A DNA stretch of 64,000 nucleotides, from sequence record OP172792. One strand, 5' to 3'. Positions 3,520 through 40,280 of this stretch are shown here, one piece after another. The DNA is from Escherichia phage ECO340P2. Each line of letters starts with the position of its first letter. The stretch's first letter is position 1. A model generated the notes under the pieces. The model had not been told where the DNA came from, searched no databases, and saw only the letters and a list, made by a program, of their open reading frames with translations. Both the position numbers and the translations under genes were made by a program.

Positions 3520-3576
3520 GGCGGCACCATTGCCGCCCTACGTGGTAAATATTAGCACACTGGCGATCTGTGTCAA
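3520..3576 (-). promoter_or_regulatory. early promoter + leader hairpin unit (TTGACA-N16-TAATAT; hairpin GGCGGCAccatTGCCGCC 3520-3537)
   Basis: canonical copy of the module. Confidence 0.65.
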
Positions 3577-3582
3577 TACTTT

Positions 3583-3969
3583 TTATTCAATATAAATCAA
3601 ATTATCTTCACCAATGTAAGCCGACACGTTCGGCATAAACTTAGCTGCATTGGTTAGGCGGTTGGCTGTGTTAGTGGTGTATATTTCAGGGCGATCCCAA
3701 AAGCCTACGCCGTGACCGTTACGGGTAAAATGTAAATCATTCCCGATCTGGTTGGCTGTTGCGCCGTCGCTCATTGCCTCAGAGATAGCGGCAAGATTAG
3801 CATTAATAAAGGCTGTTACATCCTGGGCGATCCGTTGATCTGCGCTAGGAGAAAAATCATAATCGTCTAAGTTATCAATAAAATTACCTTCATGATCCCT
3901 TGCTGATTCAGCAAAAATAAAGGCTTCTTTATAGCCGTTGATGATTTCAATAATGATTTCTGTTTTCAT
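3583..3969 (-). CDS. hypothetical early protein
   Basis: ORF; start overlaps stop of upstream gene (translational coupling). Confidence 0.55.
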   Translation of the reverse strand: MKTEIIIEIINGYKEAFIFAESARDHEGNFIDNLDDYDFSPSADQRIAQDVTAFINANLAAISEAMSDGATANQIGNDLHFTRNGHGVGFWDRPEIYTTNTANRLTNAAKFMPNVSAYIGEDNLIYIE

Positions 3970-4181
3970 GCTGTACGCTCGACAATAATAATAGTTTGCG
4001 GGATCTCGTTTTCTACTACTAACAAGGCTTTTTTCTGTGTGATAGATATTTTAACACGTTGTAAAGTAGCGGTAAAATCTTTCATTTCATTATGCGCGGA
4101 TTTAGTACAATGCCAGATCTCAGGCTTACCAACTTGTAAGCCGCGTAAAAATTCCGTTTTGCCTGTTTTGTTCGTGATCAT
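3966..4181 (-). CDS. hypothetical early protein
   Basis: ORF; ATG at 4181 with TAAGGTGA RBS (track uses GTG at 4190). Confidence 0.5.
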   Translation of the reverse strand: MITNKTGKTEFLRGLQVGKPEIWHCTKSAHNEMKDFTATLQRVKISITQKKALLVVENEIPQTIIIVERTA

Positions 4182-4191
4182 TTGTTTCACC

Positions 4192-4296
4192 TTAACCGAT
4201 ACCGTGGGAAGATAGGATCATATTAGCCATAGTTGCAACTACTCCAACCGATAACGCCAGGCCAACCACTGCAACCGTGAAAATTTTCTCTAACAT
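4192..4296 (-). CDS. small hydrophobic membrane peptide (34 aa)
   Basis: track ORF 4192..4395 trimmed; its upstream part runs through the leader hairpin and promoter; hydrophobic sequence. Confidence 0.4.
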   Translation of the reverse strand: MLEKIFTVAVVGLALSVGVVATMANMILSSHGIG

Positions 4297-4314
4297 GATT
4301 CTACCCTCATTAAT

Positions 4315-4377
4315 GGGCGTTGCACCATTGCCCCGCCCTACGTAATACACTTTACTAGATAACAAATTATTGTCAAG
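4315..4377 (-). promoter_or_regulatory. early promoter + irregular leader hairpin unit
   Basis: TGTCAA at 4372-4377 (minus-strand TTGACA); hairpin with enlarged loop containing caccattgcc. Confidence 0.5.
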
Positions 4378-4379
4378 CT

Positions 4380-4517
4380 TTATTTTACTTCCCAAACGGA
4401 AAATTCGCTGCCTGTTGGGATCATTTTTTTAATCTTGTTTGCTGCCGCTACCAGGTCAACGGCTTGTACTGTAATAATATAACCAATTGTCGAGGCTGTT
4501 GCGTTGAAAGTTTTCAT
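4380..4517 (-). CDS. hypothetical small early protein (45 aa)
   Basis: hand-translated ORF below track size cut-off, sits in a gap between genes. Confidence 0.4.
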   Translation of the reverse strand: MKTFNATASTIGYIITVQAVDLVAAANKIKKMIPTGSEFSVWEVK

Positions 4518-4536
4518 TATATTGCCCTTTAATACA

Positions 4537-4554
4537 GGCGGGATTAATCCCGCC
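4537..4554 (-). promoter_or_regulatory. leader hairpin GGCGGGAttaaTCCCGCC
   Basis: perfect palindrome 7 nt after stop of upstream gene. Confidence 0.45.
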
Positions 4555-4561
4555 TTTTTGA

Positions 4562-4732
4562 TTACTCTTCATTATCGCCGTTATAGTATTCAATGCCGTT
4601 TTCATCGGTTACGGTGATGTTAACGCCACCGATAGCAACACGATCACGGGCAAACGTCATAGCTTCATTTAAATCTTCAGACCAAAAAATATTGTGACCT
4701 TTGCGCGATACATAAAACATAGTCGGGATCAT
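4562..4732 (-). CDS. hypothetical small early protein (56 aa)
   Basis: track ORF 4562..4816 trimmed to ATG after leader hairpin. Confidence 0.5.
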   Translation of the reverse strand: MIPTMFYVSRKGHNIFWSEDLNEAMTFARDRVAIGGVNITVTDENGIEYYNGDNEE

Positions 4733-4755
4733 GATTTGTTTCTCTTCTGTTATGA

Positions 4756-4816
4756 GCGGTGGACCATTCCGCCGCCCTATGTGGTAAACTTTACTACGTT
4801 GTTTGCCTGCTGTCAA
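4756..4816 (-). promoter_or_regulatory. early promoter + leader hairpin unit (variant hairpin GGCGGtGGACCAttCCGCCGCC)
   Basis: TGTCAA at 4811-4816; hairpin variant. Confidence 0.5.
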
Positions 4817-4817
4817 A

Positions 4818-5102
4818 CTATTTTTTAATGTTTTGCCCTACAAAATCGATCACTTCCTTAAGCTGTCTCTCTGTCATGATCGTACCTGGTAACTCTTCTT
4901 TAATTTCTTCCGGTAAATAGATATTACCGCGCCAGGTTAACAAACAACCGTTTTGATCTTCGCAGATAGAATAAGAAAACATCCACTCGCAATCATTTTC
5001 AAGCTCCCAAAAACACAAAAAGTCTTCTTTCCCTAAGTTTTCAACGGTTAAACATAATCCGCGACGTGCTGCATAATTAGTTAGGCTTTTTGTGATTTTC
5101 AT
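4818..5102 (-). CDS. hypothetical early protein
   Basis: track ORF trimmed to ATG 5102 with AGAAGAGAGAAAAA RBS. Confidence 0.5.
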   Translation of the reverse strand: MKITKSLTNYAARRGLCLTVENLGKEDFLCFWELENDCEWMFSYSICEDQNGCLLTWRGNIYLPEEIKEELPGTIMTERQLKEVIDFVGQNIKK

Positions 5103-5123
5103 GATTTTTCTCTCTTCTTGTGA

Positions 5124-5179
5124 GCGGCACCATTGCCGCCCTACAAGATACATATTACCAGATTAAGCGGACTTGTCAA
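5124..5179 (-). promoter_or_regulatory. early promoter + leader hairpin unit (hairpin GCGGCAccatTGCCGC)
   Basis: TGTCAA 5174-5179. Confidence 0.6.
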
Positions 5180-5300
5180 ACTATTTTTTCTTTTTCTTTG
5201 CTTTCAATCGTCTAAGGTTACGGCTGGACTTATTGCGCAAGGCGCTTAGATCGTCGTACCCTTTCCATGCTTGCATATCTTTCGGATTCATGTTATCCCC

Positions 5301-5462
5301 TTACTTGTTAGCCGGATCATATACCAGGACCGCGCCGCTTGCTTTCACGCTTTCCGCTTCATAGTTGCGCAGATCGTTTTCTGTAAGATTGAGCGCGATC
5401 ACTTCCTCGATCTCAACGCCAGCGGCAAGGGCGATCTCTTTGATAATATCTGTTGTTTTCAT
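5301..5462 (-). CDS. hypothetical small early protein
   Basis: track ORF trimmed to ATG 5462 with AAGGTG RBS. Confidence 0.45.
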   Translation of the reverse strand: MKTTDIIKEIALAAGVEIEEVIALNLTENDLRNYEAESVKASGAVLVYDPANK

Positions 5463-5472
5463 GGTGTGCACC

Positions 5473-5592
5473 TTATAAGATGATTGATAAGATAGTGACA
5501 ACGAAAGCGATTATACTGATGGCAAATGTCATCTTTTTACCTTCGGATACTGCCGGATTTTCTACCGTGTATTCTACTGTGTACTTGCTCAT
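5473..5592 (-). CDS. small hydrophobic membrane peptide (39 aa)
   Basis: hand-translated ORF below track size cut-off; hydrophobic C-terminal half. Confidence 0.4.
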   Translation of the reverse strand: MSKYTVEYTVENPAVSEGKKMTFAISIIAFVVTILSIIL

Positions 5593-5614
5593 CGTGTAAT
5601 CCTCTCGTTTGCTT

Positions 5615-5677
5615 TGGGAACTATTCCCGCCGCCCTATGAATTAAATATACACTATCTCAAAATGATTGCAAGCCTT
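5615..5677 (-). promoter_or_regulatory. early promoter (TTGCAA-N16-TATATT) + leader hairpin GGGAActaTTCCC
   Basis: read on minus strand. Confidence 0.5.
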
Positions 5678-5690
5678 TTTCTAAATTATT

Positions 5691-5975
5691 TTATTCAGTA
5701 AACAAACCATCATTTACAACGGCGGCGATGATCTCCCGTGCCATTGATTCAGGGAAAGGGGCGCTATAGTCCTGGCTTGTCTCATCGGTATCGGTGATCC
5801 AATGATAAGCTAACGAGTAAAAGCCTTTACTAACTGTTTTCAGTGAGATGATGATCACTCGGTCAAGCTTATTGGTGAATGTTGCCGTTAATGTGTTACC
5901 CTCCTGCGTCATGTTGGACAAGTAAGCGAGATCATTAATCAGGGAAAACATTAGCACGGTGTTAGCTTTACTCAT
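5691..5975 (-). CDS. hypothetical early protein
   Basis: track ORF trimmed to ATG 5975 with GAGGA RBS. Confidence 0.5.
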   Translation of the reverse strand: MSKANTVLMFSLINDLAYLSNMTQEGNTLTATFTNKLDRVIIISLKTVSKGFYSLAYHWITDTDETSQDYSAPFPESMAREIIAAVVNDGLFTE

Positions 5976-6005
5976 GATTGCATCCTCAAAGGGGCGCGGC
6001 ACCAT

Positions 6006-6060
6006 TGCCGCCCTACACGATAACTATAACACAATGTAAAACAGGGTCAACCTTTATTTT
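6006..6060 (-). promoter_or_regulatory. early promoter (TTGACC-N16-TATAGT) + leader hairpin
   Basis: read on minus strand. Confidence 0.55.
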
Positions 6061-6253
6061 TCCACGGTGTCAGCTTGTTAATCATTGGTGATAAATAGCG
6101 TTTACCAACGTAAAACAGTACGCCAACTGATGCAACGGCGGCGACCTCATGCATAGCCGACGGGAAACGGGTATCATAATAAGATCCAATAATAGCAATA
6201 GCGGCAACGGCTGCAACGTCGATAATGATTTTCTCTTGTTTTGCGGTGATCAT
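6047..6253 (-). CDS. small membrane protein
   Basis: hydrophobic segment AAVAAIAIIGSYY; RBS AAAAGG. Confidence 0.5.
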   Translation of the reverse strand: MITAKQEKIIIDVAAVAAIAIIGSYYDTRFPSAMHEVAAVASVGVLFYVGKRYLSPMINKLTPWKNKG

Positions 6254-6275
6254 AGTATTTACCTTTTTGTATGGT

Positions 6276-6332
6276 GGGGAACTATTCCCCGCCTGATGTA
6301 ATACAGTTTAACAGGTCCGGTTATGGTGTCAA
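6276..6332 (-). promoter_or_regulatory. early promoter + leader hairpin unit (GGGGAActaTTCCCC)
   Basis: TGTCAA 6327-6332. Confidence 0.55.
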
Positions 6333-6338
6333 CCACTT

Positions 6339-6524
6339 TTAAAGATATTTTATGCTAATGACGTTTTCAGGTTTTACCTTGTTATGATGTGCATCAACAT
6401 AGATCAAACCATCGTCAGAAAAGCCCAGGATCACGCCCTGCGCGATAAAACCGTACTCGTCACGGTAACGCACGGCTATTTTTAATGTTGCGTTGTAGGC
6501 TGTTTTAAGCTCGTTTAAAGTCAT
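6339..6524 (-). CDS. hypothetical small early protein
   Basis: ORF with GAGGATAAACAAAA RBS. Confidence 0.5.
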   Translation of the reverse strand: MTLNELKTAYNATLKIAVRYRDEYGFIAQGVILGFSDDGLIYVDAHHNKVKPENVISIKYL

Positions 6525-6543
6525 TTTTGTTTATCCTCTACAT

Positions 6544-6571
6544 GTAAAAAGAAAGGGCGCTTGATGCGCCC
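6544..6571 (-). terminator. intrinsic terminator/attenuator (GGGCGCatcaaGCGCCC + TTTCTTTTT) between two co-directional early genes
   Basis: GC stem plus T-run on minus strand. Confidence 0.55.
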
Positions 6572-6579
6572 TTGTTATG

Positions 6580-6726
6580 TTAATCCTCTAAATCCATCCA
6601 ATTATATTTGTCACTCTTCCCGCGCTTTGTTTTATTACGCTTGTCACCTTTGCGGATCACTTCCTCGTTCCAGGCCTTGCGGATCTTGGAAGATTGAATT
6701 TTTTCTGCGCGATTAGATGTATTCAT
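6580..6726 (-). CDS. small basic protein (48 aa)
   Basis: hand-translated ORF; Lys/Arg-rich. Confidence 0.4.
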   Translation of the reverse strand: MNTSNRAEKIQSSKIRKAWNEEVIRKGDKRNKTKRGKSDKYNWMDLED

Positions 6727-6746
6727 TTTGTTTCCTCTTTATATGA

Positions 6747-6799
6747 GCGGCACCATTGCCGCTATATTGTTAATTTAAACTGTTTTGTAAAATTGTCAA
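6747..6799 (-). promoter_or_regulatory. early promoter (TTGACA-N16-TAAATT) + leader hairpin
   Basis: read on minus strand. Confidence 0.6.
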
Positions 6800-6805
6800 G
6801 GTTTA

Positions 6806-7159
6806 TCATTCATAAGAGCAAGCAAGGATCACGCCTGCAATATAAAGCCAATAATTTTCCCTTTCTCGTTGGATTTTATCATCGCTGCTATTCTCTTTAA
6901 TGTATCCCCAGGATGTTAACAGGCGATCAATTTCCCAATATTCGAAAGCGATATTGATATCTGATGGCAAACCTTGTAACCATGATGCAAGTGCTTTAAC
7001 AATACTATAATTAAAACGTGATTGGTTATCAGGGTACCAGTACTCGGAATTAAAACGGCGCATCAATTCCGCGATCTTCTCTTTTTCGGTTGTAATACCA
7101 TAATCATTAAAATCGATAGCGGCAAGGATGTACTCTTTAATTGCATTTTGTGCTTTCAT
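6806..7159 (-). CDS. hypothetical early protein
   Basis: ORF with AAAGAGAGAAAGACC RBS. Confidence 0.55.
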   Translation of the reverse strand: MKAQNAIKEYILAAIDFNDYGITTEKEKIAELMRRFNSEYWYPDNQSRFNYSIVKALASWLQGLPSDINIAFEYWEIDRLLTSWGYIKENSSDDKIQRERENYWLYIAGVILACSYE

Positions 7160-7178
7160 GGTCTTTCTCTCTTTTTGA

Positions 7179-7235
7179 GCGGGAACTATTCCCGCCCTAC
7201 GTGTAACAGTTTACTGAAAATTAAATCCGTGTCAA
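7179..7235 (-). promoter_or_regulatory. early promoter (TTGACA-N16-TAAACT) + leader hairpin GCGGGAActaTTCCCGC
   Basis: read on minus strand. Confidence 0.6.
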
Positions 7236-7238
7236 GCT

Positions 7239-7460
7239 TTATTTTGTTACTACCATTTGGTACCCTGTTTCAATGTTAGTAAATACTGTTATCCCGTCCT
7301 GGCGTTCACTCATTAGCATACAAGGCGCTAACATCCTTTCTACTGCCTTGCACTCATTGTAAACGGCGGTTATGTCTCCTGCGGCCTTGTCTTCTGTGGT
7401 GAATGTATCGTTTACGTAAACCTGACCAGCGACAACGGTGACAATAGCGAAAGTGATCAT
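7239..7460 (-). CDS. hypothetical small early protein
   Basis: ORF; shares RBS and first 5 codons (MITFA) with gene 7535..7702. Confidence 0.5.
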   Translation of the reverse strand: MITFAIVTVVAGQVYVNDTFTTEDKAAGDITAVYNECKAVERMLAPCMLMSERQDGITVFTNIETGYQMVVTK

Positions 7461-7493
7461 GGTGTTTCCTTGTTAGTAGTGGTTTCTCTTCTC

Positions 7494-7532
7494 TATAGCG
7501 CCCATTGTAAGGCGCTATAACGAAAAGTCAAC
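7494..7532 (-). promoter_or_regulatory. promoter TTGACT-N16-TACAAT embedded in a hairpin (TATAGCGCC/GGCGCTATA)
   Basis: -10 lies in the loop of a 9-bp inverted repeat. Confidence 0.45.
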
Positions 7533-7534
7533 GA

Positions 7535-7702
7535 TTATTTTTTAAGGCTTAAAGTACCTAACTTGTCAGCATGACGCAGACCAGGGAAGATCCATTTGCC
7601 TGACTCATCTTTCACCGGGGCTTTAAGCGTAGCGCCCAGGTTGGCGGCGTTAACTTTACGTGCAACGTTGCGAGCGGCTTCACGGGTAGCGAAAGTGATC
7701 AT
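7535..7702 (-). CDS. hypothetical small early protein (55 aa)
   Basis: hand-translated ORF below track size cut-off. Confidence 0.4.
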   Translation of the reverse strand: MITFATREAARNVARKVNAANLGATLKAPVKDESGKWIFPGLRHADKLGTLSLKK

Positions 7703-7726
7703 GGTGTTTTCCTCTTCTCTTTGTTA

Positions 7727-7788
7727 GGCGGTGGACCATTCCGCCGCCTTGATGTAATACAGTTTACTTTATTTTATTAAGATTGCAA
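7727..7788 (-). promoter_or_regulatory. early promoter (TTGCAA) + variant leader hairpin
   Basis: same hairpin variant as 4756-4776. Confidence 0.5.
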
Positions 7789-7794
7789 GCGGTT

Positions 7795-8010
7795 TTATGA
7801 AATAATTGTCAAAGTAAAATCATAAGACTGATTTAATTTATATTGTACTTTATTGCCGTAGTAGTCACCTTTACGTAAAGATCCGCGAATACCTATCACA
7901 TCCTTTACATCTTTAAGACTTTTTACGCCTGTAATGTCTTTATTGAAATACTCGTCATCTGAAAATAAAACTTGACTTGCATTTTTTAACAGTGTGCGGA
8001 TATTAGCCAT
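7795..8010 (-). CDS. hypothetical small early protein
   Basis: track ORF trimmed to ATG 8010. Confidence 0.5.
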   Translation of the reverse strand: MANIRTLLKNASQVLFSDDEYFNKDITGVKSLKDVKDVIGIRGSLRKGDYYGNKVQYKLNQSYDFTLTIIS

Positions 8011-8031
8011 CGTGATAATCTCTCTTCTTGT

Positions 8032-8089
8032 TGGCGGCACCATTGCCGCCCTACGTAATACAGTTTACTCTTTTTCTTTCCAGTGTCAA
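8032..8089 (-). promoter_or_regulatory. early promoter (TTGACA-N16-TAAACT) + leader hairpin GGCGGCAccatTGCCGCC
   Basis: canonical copy. Confidence 0.65.
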
Positions 8090-8098
8090 CAATCTTTT

Positions 8099-8326
8099 TC
8101 AGATTATTTCATCCAGGCATAACAGGCGATCAACGTTGAGATCGGTTAGGCTGATGGTTGGCACCTGGTAGGATTCGATGTACTCAACACTAGCCCATTG
8201 CCCGAAATTAGCGACCGCCCAGCTATTCAAGGAAGATTGCAGATCATCCCCTTTCTTCTCGGTGATAACTGCTACTGTCTGGAAGTTGCCAACGGTGCCG
8301 GATACGCGAACAATAATGATAGCCAT
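8099..8326 (-). CDS. hypothetical small early protein
   Basis: ORF with AGAAGAGAGAAA RBS. Confidence 0.55.
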   Translation of the reverse strand: MAIIIVRVSGTVGNFQTVAVITEKKGDDLQSSLNSWAVANFGQWASVEYIESYQVPTISLTDLNVDRLLCLDEII

Positions 8327-8350
8327 GATGATTTCTCTCTTCTGTTAGGC

Positions 8351-8405
8351 GGGGCGCTTGTCGCCCCTATGTGATACATTTTACACTAATTTAAAACGTT
8401 GTCAA
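8351..8405 (-). promoter_or_regulatory. early promoter + leader hairpin GGGGCGcttgtCGCCCC
   Basis: TGTCAA 8400-8405. Confidence 0.55.
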
Positions 8406-8414
8406 CTGCTTTTA

Positions 8415-8654
8415 TTACATTCCAACCATTGCGGCGCGGATACTGGATTTACTGAACTTGTAACCGTCTGGCGTTTTATCTTGTCCAGTTTGTTCCAGAA
8501 ATAACATCATATGACGGGCTGCATCATTACGATTAGTATTAGCGTCGATAAACTCTTTCGCCAACCGATATAATGACTCATCGTTATTAATCCAAAGGCT
8601 TACATTCCAATGAGTTTTATTTTTGTGACCTAAGAACATTTTTGATTTAGCCAT
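8415..8654 (-). CDS. hypothetical early protein
   Basis: track ORF trimmed to ATG 8654 downstream of leader hairpin. Confidence 0.5.
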   Translation of the reverse strand: MAKSKMFLGHKNKTHWNVSLWINNDESLYRLAKEFIDANTNRNDAARHMMLFLEQTGQDKTPDGYKFSKSSIRAAMVGM

Positions 8655-8688
8655 GATGTTAATCTCTTTTTCAGTGAGGCGGGAACTA

Positions 8689-8747
8689 TTCCCGCTCTCG
8701 ATGTAAAACATTTTACGCTTTTTCTTTCTGTTGTCAATGCTTTTTAT
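8689..8747 (-). promoter_or_regulatory. early promoter + leader hairpin GCGGGAActaTTCCCGC
   Basis: TGTCAA 8742-8747. Confidence 0.55.
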
Positions 8748-9109
8748 AAATCTTTTTTACGTTTAACATCGCTTGCATGACTGTATACAGTGATCCCATT
8801 GTCACGGCAAAAACGGGAAAGATATGTGCCGCGTGAAAACTCCTTGCCTTCAAGGTTGATAACCTTGCTAAATTCTTCCAGGGCGACGGTATCAAAATGA
8901 TCACCATAACCATATTGAAACGGAACGTTAACCACTTGAATCAATTTACCGCCGATCTCAACGTCAACCATTAAAGAAAAATATGTGTTACCGTAGGACT
9001 GTTGAAACCAGCGACGGGCGCTAATATGCACCGCCTCAATGCTGGATAGTTCAATTTTAGCAGTATTAGCCAAGGTAGCATAAGCGGAAACATTGATATT
9101 AATAGCCAT
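8744..9109 (-). CDS. hypothetical early protein
   Basis: ORF with AAAAGG RBS. Confidence 0.55.
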   Translation of the reverse strand: MAININVSAYATLANTAKIELSSIEAVHISARRWFQQSYGNTYFSLMVDVEIGGKLIQVVNVPFQYGYGDHFDTVALEEFSKVINLEGKEFSRGTYLSRFCRDNGITVYSHASDVKRKKDL

Positions 9110-9129
9110 GATGATAACCTTTTATTGTT

Positions 9130-9186
9130 GGCGGCACCATTGCCGCCCTACGTGATAAACTATACCAGAATTTTAAATAGTGTCAA
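9130..9186 (-). promoter_or_regulatory. early promoter + leader hairpin GGCGGCAccatTGCCGCC
   Basis: TGTCAA 9181-9186. Confidence 0.65.
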
Positions 9187-9192
9187 ATGTTT

Positions 9193-9555
9193 TTATTCGT
9201 AAATTTTGCCGCTTTCTACCCATACCGTAACACGGCGCATATTATCCCAAGTGTCTTGATCCAAGTTTAAGCCGTGCAACTCTTCGGTACTTCCCAGACC
9301 AGGTACCGCCTTGTTGTAAGTTGCATATAAGCGCCCTTGATACTCATACGCCAGGGTGAGATCCGTTTGAATCATCTTTTTAAGCATAGCGTTAAGCATC
9401 ATATTAGCGGCATGTTGATCACGTTTTAGCGGTAACATGTCAATAAGGGCGCGATAAGCTGAAATATGAATATCAACCGTTTCACGTGGTAAATTTTTCA
9501 TATCATCGCGGAAAGATACCAGATTAAACATGATAGTATTGATTTGCTTGCTCAT
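9193..9555 (-). CDS. hypothetical early protein
   Basis: ORF with AAAAAGGG RBS. Confidence 0.55.
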   Translation of the reverse strand: MSKQINTIMFNLVSFRDDMKNLPRETVDIHISAYRALIDMLPLKRDQHAANMMLNAMLKKMIQTDLTLAYEYQGRLYATYNKAVPGLGSTEELHGLNLDQDTWDNMRRVTVWVESGKIYE

Positions 9556-9566
9556 TGTGTTACCCT

Positions 9567-9627
9567 TTTTTGTTTTGGCGGGGAAGTATTCCGCCGCCCT
9601 ATGTGATACATCTTATCAGATTAAAAA
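9567..9627 (-). promoter_or_regulatory. early promoter (TTGACA-N16-TAAGAT) + leader hairpin
   Basis: read on minus strand. Confidence 0.6.
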
Positions 9628-9658
9628 ACGTTGTCAAGAATATTTTTAAAAATAATTT

Positions 9659-9940
9659 TTAGCTATATGATCCGCACCGCTCGCAATAGTGATCATCGTC
9701 GTCATCTGCCACCTGGCTGATAAAGTGATCAACCTTCATTTTCAGGTTATTATAATTGTTTTCAACTTCTTTTAATCTTTCTTGGTAGTATTCCAGGGCT
9801 TCAACATATGCCGCCTCAGCCGTTTTTTCACGCATAGCTAAATTCATGCCGCGCGTATCATCGTACAGCCAAAAACCATCAGTGCATTCACTCATTGAAA
9901 GCGTAGGGCTTAACTCTTTATGACTAATTACCTTGCTCAT
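9659..9940 (-). CDS. hypothetical early protein (C-terminal CxxC)
   Basis: track ORF trimmed to ATG 9940. Confidence 0.45.
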   Translation of the reverse strand: MSKVISHKELSPTLSMSECTDGFWLYDDTRGMNLAMREKTAEAAYVEALEYYQERLKEVENNYNNLKMKVDHFISQVADDDDDHYCERCGSYS

Positions 9941-9950
9941 AGTGTGCGCC

Positions 9951-10055
9951 TTATAGAAGGATTGAAATAACAATTGCTACAGTGATCCACACTGGAACGG
10001 CTAGAATGATAGCGTTAATCGTTCCAACCGTCAAGCTATTTTCTTTATTAATCAT
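9951..10055 (-). CDS. small hydrophobic membrane peptide (34 aa)
   Basis: hand-translated ORF directly after leader hairpin. Confidence 0.4.
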   Translation of the reverse strand: MINKENSLTVGTINAIILAVPVWITVAIVISILL

Positions 10056-10084
10056 TGTAAACCTTTTATATAATTTCACTATGA

Positions 10085-10141
10085 GCGGCACCATTGCCGC
10101 CCTACGTGGTAAATATTATGCTAGTGGCGGCGATATGTCAA
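10085..10141 (-). promoter_or_regulatory. early promoter (TTGACA-N17-TAATAT) + leader hairpin
   Basis: read on minus strand. Confidence 0.6.
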
Positions 10142-10695
10142 AGGCTATTTTCAAAGTTTTCTAGCGCGATCCTTTTTTCTTCCTCTGTCGGCTGATAATC
10201 AGGAAAAGCATCAATACACAACAACGGCGGGATCTCTTCGTACTCTTCCTCTTCCGTTGTCTCCTCGTCTTCCTCCTGGGCTATGGCTGCAATTTTGGCT
10301 AATTTTCTTTCAGCTTGAATCAGTTTACCATCAAGTACATTTTTTGCCATGTTGTAAGCGGTCCAGGTGATGCGCTTATTTTCCAGGGCTTCATCAAGCG
10401 CCGCTATCTTGCTGGGATATTCATCAAGGACACGAAAAGCCGGATCAACCTTGTACAAAGGATTATCTTTCGCGCCGTCGCTAGGATCTTCCGCACTGGA
10501 TAAATCAGCGTTACCATTTGCCAGCCAACCAGGGCGCACATGACGCGCTTTTACGTTGCCGTTACTACGTGCTAACCTGTTACCTATTTGCTCACCACTA
10601 TAGCCCGTTGATTCATCGACAAGATGATCGGGAATGATGCGCGGATCATCTGCCTCATGCTTTACCCAAGACTGGATCACATATTCACGCCCCAT
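10138..10695 (-). CDS. hypothetical early protein with acidic stretch
   Basis: ORF; ATG 10695 with AAGGTGG RBS; EEDEETTEEEEYEE run. Confidence 0.55.
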   Translation of the reverse strand: MGREYVIQSWVKHEADDPRIIPDHLVDESTGYSGEQIGNRLARSNGNVKARHVRPGWLANGNADLSSAEDPSDGAKDNPLYKVDPAFRVLDEYPSKIAALDEALENKRITWTAYNMAKNVLDGKLIQAERKLAKIAAIAQEEDEETTEEEEYEEIPPLLCIDAFPDYQPTEEEKRIALENFENSL

Positions 10696-12989: not shown

Positions 12990-13523
12990 TCATCTTTGCG
13001 GTATTTTGTCTGGGAAAAGTATTTCTATCAGCTTGTTATGATATTTACCTAAAAGATTCTGCCCTTTCCAGGTGGCAGGGTTTAGCACCCCTGGTTCATA
13101 CATCCCCATTCCAATTCCGTATACCTTATCGTAAGGACTTGCTTCAACAAATGTTTTGTATTGATATAGACGTAAATCGGCATACAAGTCTGGATTCTGT
13201 ACATACTTCAAGCATAAGCCTCGCATTACAATACGCTCACGATTCTCTTCCCATACTTTGTTATCGAAGCCAGCTACTGCCCTACCCATACGTTTGTAAT
13301 AAGCTTGTATCTTCTCATCTTCTCGTTTTAAACTATGAGTCAGAATAGCCTGTGCAGTGCTGTGGTCATTAAAAAGCAAAGCTTTACGCCACATCATATA
13401 TTGTTCTACACAGTTAAATGTTTCATTGTATCCTAGCTCCGTCTCTGTAAATGGTGCAAGATACCAATTACTAAACACATCTTTATGTGAAAAGAAGAAT
13501 ACATATTCATCAGTTATTCTCAT
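12990..13523 (-). CDS. NADAR (YbiA-like, DUF1768) domain protein; putative ADP-ribosyl/N-glycoside hydrolase
   Basis: recalled YbiA-family pattern: FFFS..FSNWY..PF, EQYMMWRKALLF, YYKRMGRAV, C-terminal LGKYHNKL; AGGAGG RBS. Confidence 0.7.
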   Translation of the reverse strand: MRITDEYVFFFSHKDVFSNWYLAPFTETELGYNETFNCVEQYMMWRKALLFNDHSTAQAILTHSLKREDEKIQAYYKRMGRAVAGFDNKVWEENRERIVMRGLCLKYVQNPDLYADLRLYQYKTFVEASPYDKVYGIGMGMYEPGVLNPATWKGQNLLGKYHNKLIEILFPDKIPQR

Positions 13524-30463: not shown

Positions 30464-31069
30464 ATGCAACATAGTGTAGTAGTTAACATGCCAAATAACG
30501 GGGATAAATCTTTTGGTATCCCTGCTAAAAAAGTGTGGAAAGCCCATTTTCATCTTACTTTATCTAACGTTAGTTCTGAAGAGTTGATGGAAGCAGCTAA
30601 GATCATTGGTGCCAAATGCACAACAATTGATTTACATCGGGATACAAAGTCTCAACGTGATCGTATGCTAACAAAGTATCAAAGCGATCTCGACACTACT
30701 TTAATGTTGCAGTGTGTAGAAAAACTTGAGAATGCAGGTTTCAATGTTGTTCGTTACAAACTGGAACGAATGTTTAAACATGTTGCCTGTGTTCTTTTCA
30801 TGGATCTAAGTAAAGAAAATTATGGAGAAGTTCACATTAAGACTTCAGCAAGTGATCCTGAAGTAGAAACAAACTTCTTCCGTATTTCTTCTAATGTTGA
30901 AGAAATTGACTACCGATTTTATAATGCTCGCTTATATTCCGCAGAAGATAAGTTGCGTTTCAATGAAGCATATGATATGCTCTTGAACAGCGGGATACAG
31001 ATAAAAGGCTACCACATAGAACAAGTTGTGGTAGACAGTAACTTAAATCTTGATGCATGGTGGGCCTAA
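30464..31069 (+). CDS. hypothetical protein (weak 2H-phosphoesterase-like HxTx motif)
   Basis: single HLTL motif near N-terminus; second motif not canonical. Confidence 0.45.
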   Translation: MQHSVVVNMPNNGDKSFGIPAKKVWKAHFHLTLSNVSSEELMEAAKIIGAKCTTIDLHRDTKSQRDRMLTKYQSDLDTTLMLQCVEKLENAGFNVVRYKLERMFKHVACVLFMDLSKENYGEVHIKTSASDPEVETNFFRISSNVEEIDYRFYNARLYSAEDKLRFNEAYDMLLNSGIQIKGYHIEQVVVDSNLNLDAWWA

Positions 31070-31070
31070 T

Positions 31071-31727
31071 ATGACAATAAAACATATCTCTTTTGATGTA
31101 TGGAACACTCTTATTTCTACCAATCAAAACTATGCAGATGCACGTACGCATACTATCGCCACTTATGGTAGAATGTCTGAACGTGCAGCCAAAGAAGCAT
31201 ACAAAGATGCCAAAGAAATCATGGATAATGCTGCACTAAATGGGTGTGCAGAGGGTGTAGCATATGCATGGAATATGTTGGGAAGAAAGATAGGTTTAAC
31301 CCCTGTAGAATCTGCACAAATGCGTTTTGAGTGTGAACAATGGTTTCTTAAATTTCCTCCACATATTGCCTTAGATTTGCCAGTTTGTTTGCTATATTTG
31401 TCTGGTAAATATGACCTTAGTATTAAAAGCAATACTAATTTTATATCTGGGGATATTTTGCGTCGTGCTTGTATGTTTGACAGTTGGAATTGTTTTGAAT
31501 TTATGCATTTTTCAGACGAACATCTGTTGTGTAAACCAGATCCTAGATTCTTTGTTAGGACAGCCACATATTCAAGCATTCCTTTGAGGGCTGAAGAGAT
31601 TTTACATGTTGGGGACAGCGAAGAATTTGATGGTAAATGTGTTGACATAGGGATTAACTTCTGTCATATTAAGAACCCTAACGACTTACTAGAGAAACTT
31701 AAAAGAGGAGAAATTGTAAATGCGTAA
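31071..31727 (+). CDS. HAD-superfamily hydrolase (phosphatase-like)
   Basis: HAD motifs: FDVWNTL (I), SIKSN (II), KPDP (III), VGDSEEFD (IV). Confidence 0.65.
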   Translation: MTIKHISFDVWNTLISTNQNYADARTHTIATYGRMSERAAKEAYKDAKEIMDNAALNGCAEGVAYAWNMLGRKIGLTPVESAQMRFECEQWFLKFPPHIALDLPVCLLYLSGKYDLSIKSNTNFISGDILRRACMFDSWNCFEFMHFSDEHLLCKPDPRFFVRTATYSSIPLRAEEILHVGDSEEFDGKCVDIGINFCHIKNPNDLLEKLKRGEIVNA

Positions 31728-32547
31728 TCAAACTCAAATTTTTGCAAACAAATTTGATGATCTGGAAACTGCTACTTTTGATATCAAAGACTATTCAAAA
31801 TTGAAATTTGGTAGTAACCAGGCTGCGCGTCGTATGGGTAAAGAATTGGCCCTTCAGTTTTTTGCTCAAGTAGCAATGAAACATATTGGGGAACAATTTG
31901 TTATCATCCCTTCTCCTTATAACCATGTGCATAATGCTGCAACAATGATGACAGATCATTTTATTAATTACTTTAATATGTTGCAAGCACAATATGATCA
32001 AGGTCGTTCAGCAGAACTGGATATTATTCATCGTAAAGTTAGCTATATCAACGATTATGGTTTCTTGGATAAAGCTAGTCGTAAGAAACTTATTGATGGG
32101 GATACATTCTACTGCAACAAAGAATTCTGGGGTGATAAGAAGCTTGTGTTCATTGATGATGTAAATATCACTGGAACTCATGAAGACAAACTGATTGAGA
32201 TCCTTGATGAAAATCAAGTTAAAAATGATGTTTACTTCTTGTATTTTGCAAAATATGAAGGTAATCAAGCAGATACCGAAGCTAAACTGAATTTTAACTA
32301 TATTAATACACCAGAAGCATTTGTTAAAATGATTAATGAAGAACGTGATGCACAGTGTCTTGTTCGTCCTATTAAGTATCTTATGGGTCAAAATCACGAA
32401 GACTTCAAAATCATTCTTAGCCAATTGCCACACTACTATGTAGAGCAGCTTTTCTTCGGATGTTTGGGAGAAGGTTACAACCGAATTGCAAAGTATGCTG
32501 AAAACTTTGAGTTCTTGGATCGTTACACAAAACAACATATTCTGTGA
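31720..32547 (+). CDS. type I phosphoribosyltransferase-fold protein
   Basis: PRPP-binding loop KLVFIDDVNITGTHEDK. Confidence 0.6.
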   Translation: MRNQTQIFANKFDDLETATFDIKDYSKLKFGSNQAARRMGKELALQFFAQVAMKHIGEQFVIIPSPYNHVHNAATMMTDHFINYFNMLQAQYDQGRSAELDIIHRKVSYINDYGFLDKASRKKLIDGDTFYCNKEFWGDKKLVFIDDVNITGTHEDKLIEILDENQVKNDVYFLYFAKYEGNQADTEAKLNFNYINTPEAFVKMINEERDAQCLVRPIKYLMGQNHEDFKIILSQLPHYYVEQLFFGCLGEGYNRIAKYAENFEFLDRYTKQHIL

Positions 32548-32560
32548 TAAGGATCTAAAA

Positions 32561-33046
32561 ATGCTTAAAATGAAAACAGGTAATCTTATTGATGCCGCTA
32601 AAGCAGGGGAAGTAACGGTTATTGCTCATTGTTGTAATTGTATGTGTAACATGGGGGCAGGTATTGCCCCACAAATAAAATATGCGTTTCCATATGCATA
32701 CGAAGCAGATTTAGCTACAGGAGCAGGAAACCAGAAAAAGCTTGGTTCTTTTAGTTTAGGAGAACCAGAAGATTATCCTAATCCTATGGTATACAACCTT
32801 TATGGACAATATCGTTATGGATATAATAGTAAAGGTCGTCAATTAGATTATGATGCACTGTATGATGCTCTTGCAGCTATGGCAATGGACTTACACAATT
32901 ACGATAAAGGAGATCAACCAGCACATAAGATTGGTCTACCTATGATAGGTGCAGGTCATGCTGGAGGTAATTGGGCTATCATTGAAGTCATGATCAAAGA
33001 AACTTTAGTAAAAGCTGGTCACGATGTGACTATTTATAAACTTTAA
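32561..33046 (+). CDS. macro-domain protein (TARG1/Poa1p/DarG-like)
   Basis: VIAHCCNCMCNMGAGIAPQIKYAF matches recalled TARG1-type macro signature (hC.s.d..MGaGIA..F). Confidence 0.65.
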   Translation: MLKMKTGNLIDAAKAGEVTVIAHCCNCMCNMGAGIAPQIKYAFPYAYEADLATGAGNQKKLGSFSLGEPEDYPNPMVYNLYGQYRYGYNSKGRQLDYDALYDALAAMAMDLHNYDKGDQPAHKIGLPMIGAGHAGGNWAIIEVMIKETLVKAGHDVTIYKL

Positions 33047-33058: not shown

Positions 33059-33280
33059 ATGGGTGTTTTTGCAGGTATTGTTGCGGTGGTAGGGTTTTTT
33101 GTTATTGCTTTTATGCTTAGTTTGATCCCAGCTTGGTTACTGTTGCTGGCTTACAACTATGTTGCTGAAGTTATGGGTCATGCAGATATCACTGTTCCAG
33201 TAACCTTCTGGACCGTGGTTTGTGTTTCGTTTATTCTGGCTGTATTACGAGGAATCTTTTCCTCTAGTTCTTCTAAGTAA
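33059..33280 (+). CDS. small membrane protein
   Basis: two hydrophobic helices; GAGGAG RBS. Confidence 0.55.
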   Translation: MGVFAGIVAVVGFFVIAFMLSLIPAWLLLLAYNYVAEVMGHADITVPVTFWTVVCVSFILAVLRGIFSSSSSK

Positions 33281-33300
33281 ATTTAAAACAGATGGAGGGC

Positions 33301-33525
33301 ATGATGAAAGTAGCTGTAGTAGAAACGGATACAGACTATCATGGAGCTTATGTTGACACCAAGATAATGGAATTCCCTTCTATGTTGGAGGCTGAAACCT
33401 GGTGTGATACAAGGTCTAGTAAAGGAAGTGCTTATTTTATCGACAAAAGCTTAACCAAAGCTTTGAACGAAGAGGAAAAGCCTAAGAAAGAGCCAGAAAA
33501 TAATATCAGCTTATCTTGGTATTAA
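33301..33525 (+). CDS. hypothetical protein
   Basis: ORF with GGAGGG RBS. Confidence 0.5.
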   Translation: MMKVAVVETDTDYHGAYVDTKIMEFPSMLEAETWCDTRSSKGSAYFIDKSLTKALNEEEKPKKEPENNISLSWY

Positions 33526-33528: not shown

Positions 33529-33587
33529 TTGACAAGCTTTTTAAAAAGAGTAAGATATATCACATGAAGCGGGGAATAGTTCCCCGC
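33529..33587 (+). promoter_or_regulatory. promoter TTGACA-N16-TAAGAT + leader hairpin GCGGGGAAtagTTCCCCGC (same module as early genes, plus strand)
   Basis: hexamers and hairpin read directly; 18 nt upstream of terC RBS. Confidence 0.6.
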
Positions 33588-33604: not shown

Positions 33605-34579
33605 ATGCAACTTGGTTTCCCAATTATTGATGTAGTTGTTTTAGTTGGTATTTTAGCATTGTCTATTGGTATCGATTTCTTTGGTCATAAAGAAAATAAA
33701 GAAATTGGAATCAAATCTGCTTTGCTTTGGTCTGTTTTTTGGATTGCTTTAGCTTTAGGGTATTACGCATTCATTTGGGTAGAACATGGTAAAGAATTTG
33801 CCGCGCTTTTCCTAAGTGGTTATGTGTTGGAAAAGAGTCTTTCTGTAGATAACCTAATGGTGTTCATGGCAATTTTTGCAAGCTTTGGAATTAAAAGCAC
33901 ACATCTCCAACATAAGATCTTACTTTGGGGGATTGCAGGAGCCATTGTCTTCCGAGGTATTTTTGTTGCAGCAGGCACCGCTTTGTTTAACCTTCATTGG
34001 TCGGTCCAAGTGTTGTTTGGTCTGATTGTAGCTTGGTCTGCCGTTGCTATTATCAAAGGGGGTGACGAAGAAGAGGATATTGATTACTCTAAACATTGGG
34101 CTGTTCGTTTAGTAGGTAAAGTTCTGCCTATGCACAATGCACTGGATGGTGAAAAGTTCATTACTATTAAGAATAGTATTAAATATGCAACCCCTGCTCT
34201 TCTTTGTGTGTTTGTTATTGAGCTTACAGATATTGTCTTCTCTTTTGATTCAGTTCCGGCTGTGATTGGTGTGACACAAGAACCTCTGCTAGTTTATTCT
34301 GCAATGCTGATGGCTGTTCTTGGCCTACGTGCACTTTTCTTTGTGTTAAGTGTAGCTGTGAAATATTTGGTTCACTTAGAGAAAGCTGTTGCTGTGGTTC
34401 TGGTGTTTGTTGGTGCTAAACTTATGTATCACCCGTTCGGTGAAACACTTCATGCCAAGTGGTCATTCCTCCCGCATGATATCTCTCCTAACGTAAGTTT
34501 AATGATTGTTCTAGGCACATTAGCTCTTGGTGTTATTGCAAGCTTTATCTTTCCTGAAAAAGAAGAAGCCACTGTTTAA
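33605..34579 (+). CDS. terC: TerC-family integral membrane protein
   Basis: multiple TM helices; SLSVDNLMVF and ELTDIVFSFDSVPAVIGVT signatures. Confidence 0.8.
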   Translation: MQLGFPIIDVVVLVGILALSIGIDFFGHKENKEIGIKSALLWSVFWIALALGYYAFIWVEHGKEFAALFLSGYVLEKSLSVDNLMVFMAIFASFGIKSTHLQHKILLWGIAGAIVFRGIFVAAGTALFNLHWSVQVLFGLIVAWSAVAIIKGGDEEEDIDYSKHWAVRLVGKVLPMHNALDGEKFITIKNSIKYATPALLCVFVIELTDIVFSFDSVPAVIGVTQEPLLVYSAMLMAVLGLRALFFVLSVAVKYLVHLEKAVAVVLVFVGAKLMYHPFGETLHAKWSFLPHDISPNVSLMIVLGTLALGVIASFIFPEKEEATV

Positions 34580-34584: not shown

Positions 34585-34610
34585 GAGCCTCCTTCGGGAG
34601 GCTATTTTAT
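34585..34610 (+). terminator. intrinsic terminator AGCCTCCttcgGGAGGCT + T-run
   Basis: 7-bp GC stem, tetraloop, ATTTTAT. Confidence 0.65.
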
Positions 34611-36204: not shown

Positions 36205-36795
36205 ATGTATACCGAGAGAGACTTGCAACTCTTGTGGTGGGAAGTGATGCAGGAAATAAAAGAAGATTTTCCTGTTTACTACAACATGTTACGTGAAGCA
36301 GGATATAAAGCTTGCGTTAGAAACAAAGTGAATAACTCTTTTGGTTGGTGCAACTACCGAGATAAAATTGTTGTTGTAAATTGGCACTTGCATAAGAACT
36401 CTACAAGAGATATGATCGTGGATACAATGAAGCATGAAATTGCTCATGCTATTGATGGTTGTATGGGTAAGTTTAGTAGGCACGGTGCTCATTGGCAAAA
36501 ACTGGCAGCAGAATTAGGGGCTAATCCTAAAGCCACTTCCAAAGAGCCGTTGAACCACGAATATAAATATGTTCTTGTTCTGGTAGATAGGTTTGCGACA
36601 AGGTGTGTTAGAGGTTATAATCGTAAACCTAATCGCATGTACCCAGGTAAGCAACCTAATATGTGGTTGAAATCAGATAAAGAAGGGACCGAAGGAAAAT
36701 TATGGTTGTATAAATGGGACGATTGGGTTAAAGTAGCTAAAGAGTACGGTGTTTCACCATATATAAGAGATGCAGAAGAGGAGAATGAAGAATGA
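36205..36795 (+). CDS. SprT-like zinc metallopeptidase-domain protein
   Basis: HEIAHAIDG (HExxH) followed by HGAHW. Confidence 0.55.
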   Translation: MYTERDLQLLWWEVMQEIKEDFPVYYNMLREAGYKACVRNKVNNSFGWCNYRDKIVVVNWHLHKNSTRDMIVDTMKHEIAHAIDGCMGKFSRHGAHWQKLAAELGANPKATSKEPLNHEYKYVLVLVDRFATRCVRGYNRKPNRMYPGKQPNMWLKSDKEGTEGKLWLYKWDDWVKVAKEYGVSPYIRDAEEENEE

Positions 36796-37904
36796 CAAGT
36801 CCATTTTTAAAAGCAGCTACTGGTGGTCAGAAGAAGTCTGAAATGAGTGTATTCGCTGCAACAACAGATGCAAGTAAATCTGTATTCGCGCCAAGCGTGT
36901 TAGATGCCAGTCCTGTTTATGCACCAGCCGCACCGCAAGAAGTCCCAGTTTTGCCTTCTATGACCCGACAAGAGATCGAAGAGATTGGGGCAGAGGCAGG
37001 AACAACCTTGCGTTCCTTGAATGCCGAGGTATTAAAACATCAACGTAGTAATCAAGGCGATCAGATGAGTGAACGACTCACAGCTTTGATTAAACAGGCA
37101 AAACAACTTGATCCAAACTCTATTAAACAAAGCAAGGGTATTACTAAACTCATTAAAAAGGTCATGGGTATGAAAGAAGACCTGTTCGGGGAGTTTGATA
37201 ATGTTAATAACCGTATTGAAGAGTTAGTAAAGAACCTTCAAATGGATATTCGCAAAGAAGAAGATTCCTTAGTATATCTTGAAAAACTACATCAAGCTAT
37301 TGGACAATATGCTGCAAGTTTGAACCGAGATATGCAGCTTCTAACAGCAACCTATGAAAAAGAAGAGCAAGCTTTGGCTGCTCTTCCAGAAGATGCAGTA
37401 GAACAGCGACAAGTGATCCGAGATACTTTGGATCTTCTGGAGATTCGTATTGCGGATTTAAAAGCATTGCGCCTACTGTGTGTCCAAATGGGACCACGTG
37501 TACAAGGTATGCAAAAAGTTTCTGCAAGCTTAATGCGATCTGCGCGTAACATAGTAAATAATGTTATCCCTGCTTACTCTGCTAACTTCTCAATGTATAT
37601 TGAGAGCTTACGTCAAATGAAAGCCGCAGAAACACAGAATAACGTTCTTGATGAATTTAACCTGGCAATTAAATTAGGTAGTGATTTGGCTACACAAAAT
37701 CAGATTGAAGCCGCAGCATTGGCTAACCGTCAAGTGTTAGATATTGATACTCTGCGACACGATCAGGAAAACTTAGTTAAAATGCTGGAAGAAACAAATC
37801 GCATCAATACAGAAGCCCGTGCTGCTCGTGTTGATTATATTAATGAAGTTCAATCTCTGGAAGACGGGATGGTAGCTGCTGTAAAACGAGGACTTGGTAA
37901 ATGA
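36792..37904 (+). CDS. helical protein, possibly TelA/KlaA-like toxic-anion-resistance family
   Basis: 370-aa largely helical protein within Ter-like cluster; family call from context and composition only. Confidence 0.35.
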   Translation: MTSPFLKAATGGQKKSEMSVFAATTDASKSVFAPSVLDASPVYAPAAPQEVPVLPSMTRQEIEEIGAEAGTTLRSLNAEVLKHQRSNQGDQMSERLTALIKQAKQLDPNSIKQSKGITKLIKKVMGMKEDLFGEFDNVNNRIEELVKNLQMDIRKEEDSLVYLEKLHQAIGQYAASLNRDMQLLTATYEKEEQALAALPEDAVEQRQVIRDTLDLLEIRIADLKALRLLCVQMGPRVQGMQKVSASLMRSARNIVNNVIPAYSANFSMYIESLRQMKAAETQNNVLDEFNLAIKLGSDLATQNQIEAAALANRQVLDIDTLRHDQENLVKMLEETNRINTEARAARVDYINEVQSLEDGMVAAVKRGLGK

Positions 37905-39485: not shown

Positions 39486-40280
39486 ATGTCCGAGAAAATC
39501 AGCCTGAAAAAACGTCAAGAAAACCTTGCTTTCTCTCTGAAAAAGAATAAGAACCTGAATGAAGGTAAGATTGTTCTTCGTGTAGCATGTGCTCTAGATA
39601 TTTCTGGTAGTATGCATGGTCTATATGCTCGTGGAGTAGTGAGTGATTTTGTAGGTAAACTGCTCCCTTTTGGTATGCTGTTCGACGATAATGAACAAAT
39701 TGATATGTGGGCCTTCAATACAAGTTCTCAAGAGCTTACTCCAGCAACAGCAGACGTTTACGATGATTATGTTGGTAAATGTATGCGTAATGTTCGTATC
39801 GGAGGTGGAACAAATTACGCCCCTGTAATGGCAGATATCTACGATGAGTATTTTGGCACTGTTACCAAATATATTACCACTAAACAAGTGGTACAAGAGG
39901 AGGCTCCAAAGAAAGGCTTCTTTAATCGTCTGCTTGGTAAAACTGAAACAGTATCTGTAGAGCGTGAAAAGGTTGTAGCTGTATCTGAACCAGGTGCTGA
40001 CGTTACCCCTGGTGTTGTATTCTTCCAGACGGATGGTGAGAATGGTGATCCTAGTGCTGTTCGTCGTCTTATTGAAGAGAATAAGAATAAACCTATTTAT
40101 TGGTTCATGGTTGGCGTCGGTAATGAGAAGTTTGGCTTCCTGAAAGAACTGGCAAATGCTTATGATAATGTTGGTTTTATTGGCATTAAAGATTTAGACT
40201 TGACAGATTCAGAGCTTTATGACAAACTCTTATCTGAAGAGTTCGGAGAGTGGGTTGTTAAAGTAGGTGCTAAAAAATGA
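39486..40280 (+). CDS. von Willebrand factor A (vWA) domain protein, TerY-like
   Basis: MIDAS motif ALDISGSMHG; N-terminal KISLKK shared with TerD gene. Confidence 0.65.
   Translation: MSEKISLKKRQENLAFSLKKNKNLNEGKIVLRVACALDISGSMHGLYARGVVSDFVGKLLPFGMLFDDNEQIDMWAFNTSSQELTPATADVYDDYVGKCMRNVRIGGGTNYAPVMADIYDEYFGTVTKYITTKQVVQEEAPKKGFFNRLLGKTETVSVEREKVVAVSEPGADVTPGVVFFQTDGENGDPSAVRRLIEENKNKPIYWFMVGVGNEKFGFLKELANAYDNVGFIGIKDLDLTDSELYDKLLSEEFGEWVVKVGAKK

Follow-up and report, generated by a model that had tools for sequence, protein, structure and literature searches.

Among the described macrodomain proteins related to the one treated here, the cellular SCO6735 of Streptomyces coelicolor provides the biochemistry: it strips DarT-made ADP-ribose off thymidine faster than DarG or TARG1 and rescues both E. 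coli and Streptomyces from DarT toxicity (PMC9411070). Its residue Gln85 is essential, the variants Q85A and Q85E being inactive, while its mobile loop, which is five residues longer than that of DarG and TARG1, is thought to clamp single-stranded DNA; the exchange K89E abolishes the activity on DNA but leads to a gain of activity on protein (PMC9411070). The genetics comes from bacteriophage T4, in which tk.4 was found by HIDEN-SEQ to be the only gene whose disruption was selected against on a host carrying DarTG2, and a clean tk.4 knockout confirmed that T4 needs the gene on such hosts, leading to the name adfM; this evidence, presented in a preprint, is genetic in nature and the enzymatic activity of Tk.4 was deduced (10.1101/2025.11.20.689424). 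The same name has been given to gp104 of the chimallivirus PhiKZ, which removes DarT2-made ADP-ribose from DNA (PMC13309987). Phage NADAR proteins (AdfN), on the other hand, reverse guanine ADP-ribosylation made by DarT1 and not the marks set by DarT2 (PMC11825919). About 41% of myoviruses encode macrodomains (PMC9503650), and which substrates macrodomains accept is notoriously hard to tell from their sequences (Iyer et al. 2022, PMC9503650).

The window that we analyzed comprises 64,000 nucleotides of Escherichia phage ECO340P2 (OP172792), a phAPEC8-like myovirus (Phapecoctavirus, Stephanstirmvirinae). An open reading frame on the plus strand (32561-33046) starts with ATG at 32561, encodes 161 amino acids and ends with the stop codon TAA at 33044-33046; a Shine-Dalgarno-like AAGGA (32549-32553, plus strand) resides seven nucleotides 5' of the ATG, as read directly from the sequence, and the same start codon is annotated in related phages (ESCO5 gp189). 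A preliminary description had claimed a macro-domain signature of the TARG1/Poa1p/DarG type in this frame. The signature, VIAHCCNCMCNMGAGIAPQIKYAF, corresponds to residues 20-43 (32618-32689, plus strand) and includes His23, Asn26 and the first glycine loop G32-A-G34. It is a match far beyond chance, as is evident from the score of the protein against PHROG 335 (E=5e-53), from 277 homologs at E<=1e-5 in a database search, from the 2,297 phage records with homologs found by tblastn, among them T4-like, Felix O1-like, PaoP5-like and rV5-like phages, and from purifying selection on the gene. In sister genomes the gene is labelled "phosphatase", "macro domain-containing protein" or "hypothetical protein". 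Phages AV126, Schickermooser, ESCO13 and ESCO5 share 94-97% identity with the surrounding 5.2 kb. Under the name 'MAG: Proteobacteria bacterium', a contig (JAEZZU010000022.1, our L014) has been deposited that is 99% identical to ECO340P2 and is thus a phage contig binned into a metagenome-assembled genome. Several records named 'Campylobacter phage' (B15, A150 and C3; records MG065650.1, MG065639.1 and MG065656.1) hold Stephanstirmvirinae-like coliphage genomes, and their labelling is doubtful.

The class assignment is borne out by several independent comparisons. Phmmer searches against PDB sequences retrieved SCO6735 (5E3B, 3e-12), BT1257 (2FG1/2AFC, 4e-8), the macrodomain of DarG from Thermus aquaticus (4e-5), human TARG1 (2e-3) and yeast Poa1p (4e-3, aligned over residues 18-48 only). 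DarG models match as well (PADLOC DarG, 1.2e-9; NCBIfam antitoxin_DarG, 1e-8) but with their N-terminal macro part only, the coverage being positions 1-144 of 329 and 2-147 of 338 and the score 34.9 bits as compared to an equivalog cut-off of 250. A macro-domain profile search, which the preliminary description had named as a check, gave a divided answer: PHROG 335 and the DarG models are clearly positive, whereas the generic Pfam Macro profile (PF01661) is narrowly missed with 21.1 bits against a gathering threshold of 22 (E=3e-4, profile positions 2-112 of 118), although a precomputed PF01661 match is present in many homologs. This score is the only weak point of the assignment, and the doubt is removed by structure prediction and fold search. 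The AlphaFold2 model, calculated from an alignment of 54 homologs from which the T4 sequence had been left out, is confident (pLDDT 93.2, pTM 0.90), is predicted to adopt the three-layer alpha/beta/alpha macro fold, and agrees with the outcome of the fold search. In sequence and structure the closest neighbors are TARG1, DarG, Poa1p and SCO6735 and not the MacroD, PARG or viral nsP3 classes. It is therefore near certain that the protein is an ADP-ribose-binding hydrolase of the ALC1/TARG1/DarG-like class.

Within this class, the active site features a characteristic set of residues. Asn26, the equivalent of DarG N22 and SCO6735 N27, is invariant in all of 120 homologs. The catalytic lysine of DarG (K80) and TARG1 (K84) is replaced by Gln83 (codon CAA, 32807-32809, plus strand), which is kept in 119 of the 120 and corresponds to Gln85 of SCO6735; T4 Tk.4 also carries Gln there. 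The position of TARG1 Asp125 is taken by Ala134, as is the case in 118 homologs and likewise in SCO6735 and BT1257. According to the alignments, the Lys84/Asp125 dyad of TARG1 is thus absent from the phage protein. Further conserved positions in the same 120 homologs are His23, G32-x-G34, Asn79, Tyr81, G130-x-G132, G135-G136 and Trp138, and the two glycine loops lining the ADP-ribose cleft, G32-A-G34 and G130-A-G132, are invariant or at least 90% conserved. The second, diphosphate-binding loop lies in residues 130-138 (GAGHAGGNW, 32948-32974, plus strand), with Ala134 inside. The preliminary description had held that loss of the catalytic residues on alignment with TARG1 and DarG would speak against its reading. 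Two of them are indeed exchanged, K84/K80 for Gln83 and D125 for Ala134, and Asn26 is kept. Such a comparison with TARG1 and DarG is, however, not valid for a subclass of the SCO6735 type because SCO6735 and T4 Tk.4 share the glutamine and because it is essential in SCO6735. The near-invariance of Asn26, Gln83 and Ala134 across the 120 homologs indicates that the phage protein is not a degenerate copy. Rather than being strictly TARG1- or DarG-like, it is SCO6735/Tk.4-like.

This is also indicated by the extended mobile loop (residues 84-94, YRYGYNSKGRQ; 32810-32842, plus strand), identified by alignment. It has the length and the SKG motif of the loops of SCO6735 and BT1257 and is longer than those of DarG, TARG1 and T4 Tk.4. 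Model confidence is lowest (mean pLDDT 73) in the block of residues 81-90, into which most of the loop falls.

Judged from the sequence comparisons, T4 Tk.4 is the closest characterized relative. The T4 homolog, the identity of which was checked in NC_000866, is tk.4 (T4p110, "contains A1pp phosphatase motif"). The two proteins share 39% identity (BLASTP, E=2e-21), and a profile of the family aligns with Tk.4 with a probability of 99.9% (hhalign, E=1.9e-32). In either case a lytic E. coli myovirus produces a stand-alone macrodomain of about 155-161 residues without a toxin partner; both proteins have Gln in place of the catalytic Lys, score near-equally against the DarG models and come from phages with a NADAR gene. 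They differ in that Tk.4 is devoid of the extended mobile loop (about six residues shorter by MAFFT, nine by BLASTP), has IGKG where the second glycine loop of ECO340P2 has HAGG, and is encoded in the vs/tk region instead of a HAD-PRTase-TerC environment. A phenotype is known for Tk.4 only. PhiKZ gp104 is likewise an orphan phage macrodomain following the same concept and probably acting on the same substrate, but it has kept the catalytic lysine (K78) and is imported into a phage nucleus, a structure that ECO340P2 does not have. It scores 82 bits with the DarG from T. aquaticus and 21 bits with our phage protein (hhalign probability 94.7%). On the basis of the lysine retained in gp104 and these bit scores, set against the Gln-type proteins of T4 and ECO340P2, phage anti-DarT2 macrodomains fall into two independent lineages, a Lys-type that is DarG2-like (PhiKZ) and a Gln-type that is SCO6735-like (T4 and the phage studied here).

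Comparison with cellular systems completes the picture. SCO6735 (5E3B) and BT1257 of Bacteroides (2FG1/2AFC) belong to the same Gln-type ALC1-like subclass, with the Gln and Ala variant and the long loop, but are cellular proteins with about 27-30% identity to the phage protein. In SCO6735, a lysine (K34) is found where the phage protein has Ala33, the loop lysines are replaced by an R85/K91/R93 pattern in the phage, and the biological context is the DNA-damage response and antibiotic production, not counter-defence. From the DarG2 proteins of T. aquaticus, M. tuberculosis and T. africanus the phage protein is set apart by the exchange of K80 for Gln83 and by its size of 161 residues as opposed to about 330-376, as it lacks the C-terminal DarT-binding domain. 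A darT gene was not found beside the macrodomain gene, and no neighboring ORF gave a DarT-family Pfam match. TARG1/OARD1 differs by its Lys84/Asp125 dyad. Poa1p, a small-molecule phosphatase, matches over a short stretch of sequence, yet it is an equally close structural neighbor of the phage protein.

The macrodomain gene stands out from its surroundings when compared with ESCO5, which carries the allele common in Phapecoctavirus. The encoded proteins are 81% identical while the neighbors reach 95-99%, and in blocks of 30 nucleotides the DNA identity drops to 30-83% in an internal tract (32660-32960, plus strand) while the gene ends and the flanking genes remain at 87-100%. For the macrodomain gene, dS is 1.08 and dN/dS 0.11; for the flanking genes the values are 0.10-0.21 and 0.03-0.26, respectively. 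Since the divergence is confined to the internal tract and the gene ends are nearly identical, this indicates that the internal segment has been replaced by recombination with a diverged allele and that purifying selection continues. Positive selection was considered as a cause of the low identity and is ruled out by the dS of 1.08 as opposed to 0.10-0.21 in the flanks and by the dN/dS of 0.11. The allele of ECO340P2 is found (at 99% identity or more) in eight phage records and an allele with 80-90% identity in 59, and metagenomic relatives exhibit a graded allele series on contigs of roughly 150 kb.

The gene neighborhood, all on the plus strand, consists of genes for a hypothetical protein (30464-31069), a HAD hydrolase (31071-31727) and a ComF-like PRTase_3 (31720-32547; PF15610, 8e-42) upstream, and for a membrane protein of 73 residues (33059-33280), a 77-residue ORF matching no family (33292-33525), TerC (33605-34579), a SprT-like metalloprotease (36205-36795), TelA (36792-37904) and a vWA-TerF-like protein (39486-40280) downstream. 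We take this gene set to resemble Ter-associated systems that Anantharaman, Iyer and Aravind described in 2012 and that include a predicted module for nucleoside-like metabolites. By tblastn, the phage records with HAD are exactly those with PRTase_3, 156 in number (a single-protein PRTase_3 scan of viral contigs returned one close relative only), and the two genes lay side by side wherever they were inspected. Their genes overlap, and the hosts of the phages include Rhizobium, Caulobacter, Brevundimonas and Xanthomonas (jumbo phages). Among 68 bacterial PRTase_3 loci, 61 have HAD directly upstream, TelA occurs close by in 11, TerC does so in six (about 17 with either), and in five (L072-L074, L077 and L078) HAD and PRTase_3 are fused into one ORF. 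A macrodomain gene was present neither within 10 kb on either side of PRTase_3 in any of the 68 bacterial loci nor, as a homolog within 6 kb of the HAD-PRTase_3 pair, in the four loci from Rhizobium, Brevundimonas, Xanthomonas and Caulobacter phages. A general coupling of the macrodomain gene to the adjacent PRTase_3/HAD pair is thus ruled out, as no macrodomain gene accompanies the pair outside of the Stephanstirmvirinae. Due to this absence from distant phage and bacterial loci, we conclude that the gene is an independent one, which the Stephanstirmvirinae carry between PRTase_3 and TerC.

Some minor features of the region may be added. In a Rhizobium phage, an NMN adenylyltransferase/Nudix gene follows the HAD-PRTase_3 pair at a distance of about 250 bp. 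A scan for promoters yielded 21 sigma-70-like sites as compared to 25.4 in shuffled controls and hence no evidence on transcription units; a promoter-like TTGACA-16-TAAGAT is situated upstream of terC (33529-33556). Immediately 3' of the terC stop codon, a strong terminator-like hairpin, AGCCTCC-TTCG-GGAGGCT (34586-34603, plus strand), is followed by ATTTTAT. The 77-residue ORF at 33292-33525 is absent from ESCO5 and the best-matching phage records, which align in two pieces with 95% query coverage, and constitutes a small indel between the membrane protein gene and terC.

In our opinion, the best reading, to which we assign a probability of roughly 0.6, is that of an orphan DNA de-ADP-ribosylase of the AdfM type that reverses DarT2 marks. 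The open reading frame, its fold and class, the active-site variant and the homology to Tk.4/AdfM and SCO6735 are established here, and from them we infer that DNA with ADP-ribosylated thymidine (dT-ADPr) is the substrate and that the protein counters DarTG2 in this phage, in analogy to the genetics of Tk.4/AdfM and the biochemistry of SCO6735. A lytic phAPEC8-like coliphage would thus produce a toxin-less, DarG2-like, AdfM-type enzyme consisting of a single macrodomain, which would bind the ADP-ribose that host toxins of the DarT2 family place on thymidine of single-stranded DNA. Hydrolysis of the bond between base and ribose would free ADP-ribose and render the phage DNA replicable again. 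For catalysis, the SCO6735 route would apply and not the Lys/Asp route of TARG1: Gln83 and Asn26 would bring the substrate and a network of water molecules into position, both glycine loops (G32-x-G34 and G130-x-G132) would hold the diphosphate and the distal ribose, and the single-stranded DNA would be clamped by the mobile loop, which is extended and basic (R85, K91, R93). A literature search on DarTG2 tests of Stephanstirmvirinae phages returned nothing. Points against this reading are the identities of only 39% to Tk.4 and about 30% to SCO6735, the action of SCO6735 and TARG1 on protein-linked ADP-ribose as well, and the phosphatase function of the structurally close Poa1p. On inspection Tk.4 and the phage protein are not interchangeable, as Tk.4 is without the extended loop and has GKG in place of AGG.

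Other functions have to be weighed against the anti-DarT2 role. The protein may be a broad eraser of ADP-ribosylation other than that made by DarT2, be it Glu/Asp-linked on protein or on RNA as set by CmdT-type ARTs, or it may tune ADP-ribosylation that a phage enzyme makes. Such enzymes share the fold class, SCO6735 and TARG1 hydrolyze protein-linked ADP-ribose besides DNA marks (PMC9411070), and a defence system that ADP-ribosylates mRNA exists (PMC11618068). We still regard this function as unlikely: the only in vivo phenotype for the phage Gln-type clade, that of tk.4, is specific for DarTG2 (10.1101/2025.11.20.689424), no ADP-ribosyltransferase is annotated in the ESCO5 genome regions examined, and the K89E exchange in SCO6735 ties the extended basic mobile loop to DNA and not to protein activity. 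Hydrolysis of a small molecule is a doubtful assignment too, whether the protein is taken for an ADP-ribose-1''-phosphate phosphatase resembling Poa1p, for a deacetylase of O-acetyl-ADP-ribose, or for an enzyme that feeds NAD salvage by degrading toxic metabolites or immune signals based on ADPR. The label 'phosphatase' in sister genomes is a legacy domain name with no assay behind it, Poa1p is the class member least similar in sequence (E=4e-3, with an alignment restricted to residues 18-48), the Gln/Ala variant and the long loop fit SCO6735 and BT1257 instead of Poa1p, and no NAD-salvage genes flank the macrodomain gene in the window.

That the protein acts mainly without catalysis, either as a reader of ADP-ribose or by binding DarT stoichiometrically and blocking it with no hydrolysis involved, is conceivable in view of the missing canonical Lys and Asp, the more so as the catalytically dead Q85A variant of SCO6735 still inhibits DarT through interaction (PMC9411070) and as the exchange of the internal tract could have changed a surface used for binding. 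The residues for SCO6735 catalysis (Gln, Asn and the glycine loops) are nevertheless near-invariant in the 120 homologs, which would be unexpected for a pure binder, and the C-terminal DarT-binding domain of DarG is missing, making this a very improbable explanation. A participation in a Ter-like module (HAD, PRTase_3, TerC, TelA, vWA-TerF) that processes a phosphoribosylated 'nucleoside-like' metabolite could be read from the tight packing on the same strand, with junctions of 8-13 nucleotides, and from the gene order kept in Phapecoctavirus and in the phi92-like Justusliebigvirus. This function we consider the least credible of all: no macrodomain gene lies near HAD-PRTase_3 in the four distant phage and 68 bacterial loci, nearly all of the 2,297 phage records with macrodomain homologs are without the module, and terC directly follows the HAD-PRTase gene in some bacteria, so that the macrodomain gene looks like an insertion. 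Finally, two speculations taken together deserve only slight credence: either the swapped tract at 32660-32960 is the toxin-contact surface, the alleles neutralizing different DarT2 variants by binding as well as hydrolysis, or the macrodomain has, in the Stephanstirmvirinae, become part of the Ter-like island (HAD, PRTase_3, TerC, SprT-like, TelA, vWA-TerF-like), where it would act on a phosphoribosylated small molecule instead of DNA.

Elsewhere in the window, on the minus strand, a NADAR-domain protein of 177 residues is encoded (12990-13523; PF08719, 1.2e-35; PDB 8BAU, 4e-14). With this gene and the macrodomain gene in one phage, ECO340P2 is equipped with both ADP-ribose-eraser folds and thereby matches the double arsenal of T4 (AdfN and AdfM). 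If the anti-DarT2 reading is true, phAPEC8-like coliphages carry a ready-made counter to DarTG2 and, with the NADAR gene, probably counter DarTG1 as well. These phages are often proposed for therapy and biocontrol, and it would become easier to predict their host range among E. coli that carry DarTG, for example EPEC. It is also possible that the Lys-type and Gln-type AdfM lineages differ in mechanism and substrate breadth. The gene is otherwise ordinary, given that phage macrodomains are common, that the family is already annotated and that a counter-defence role has already been published for homologs. It is a real but ordinary additional member of a recently characterized family of phage counter-defence proteins.

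Other members of the macrodomain family are either orphans (Hymenobacter) or reside in phage islands for NAD and ADP-ribose metabolism. Two published systems, those of the CmdTAC paper (PMC11618068) and the AcrIF11 paper, were considered and have no bearing on this macrodomain family. NAD reconstitution of the NARP3 kind was likewise dismissed for the gene in ECO340P2, as the NARP3 paper has no macro component and as the window contains no homologs of NAMPT, Prs and SIR2 from a phage island on Logan contig ERR3662987_63 (L012). There, positions 1-10450 encode NUDIX, Glu_synthase, NAMPT, NADAR, a 179-residue ORF, Macro, HAD_SAK_2, SIR2 and a PRPP-synthetase-like protein (Prs). The Macro protein is a homolog of the ECO340P2 macrodomain, with NADAR located one gene away, and the order Macro, HAD_SAK_2 (in two copies), SIR2 is repeated on a further contig (L013).
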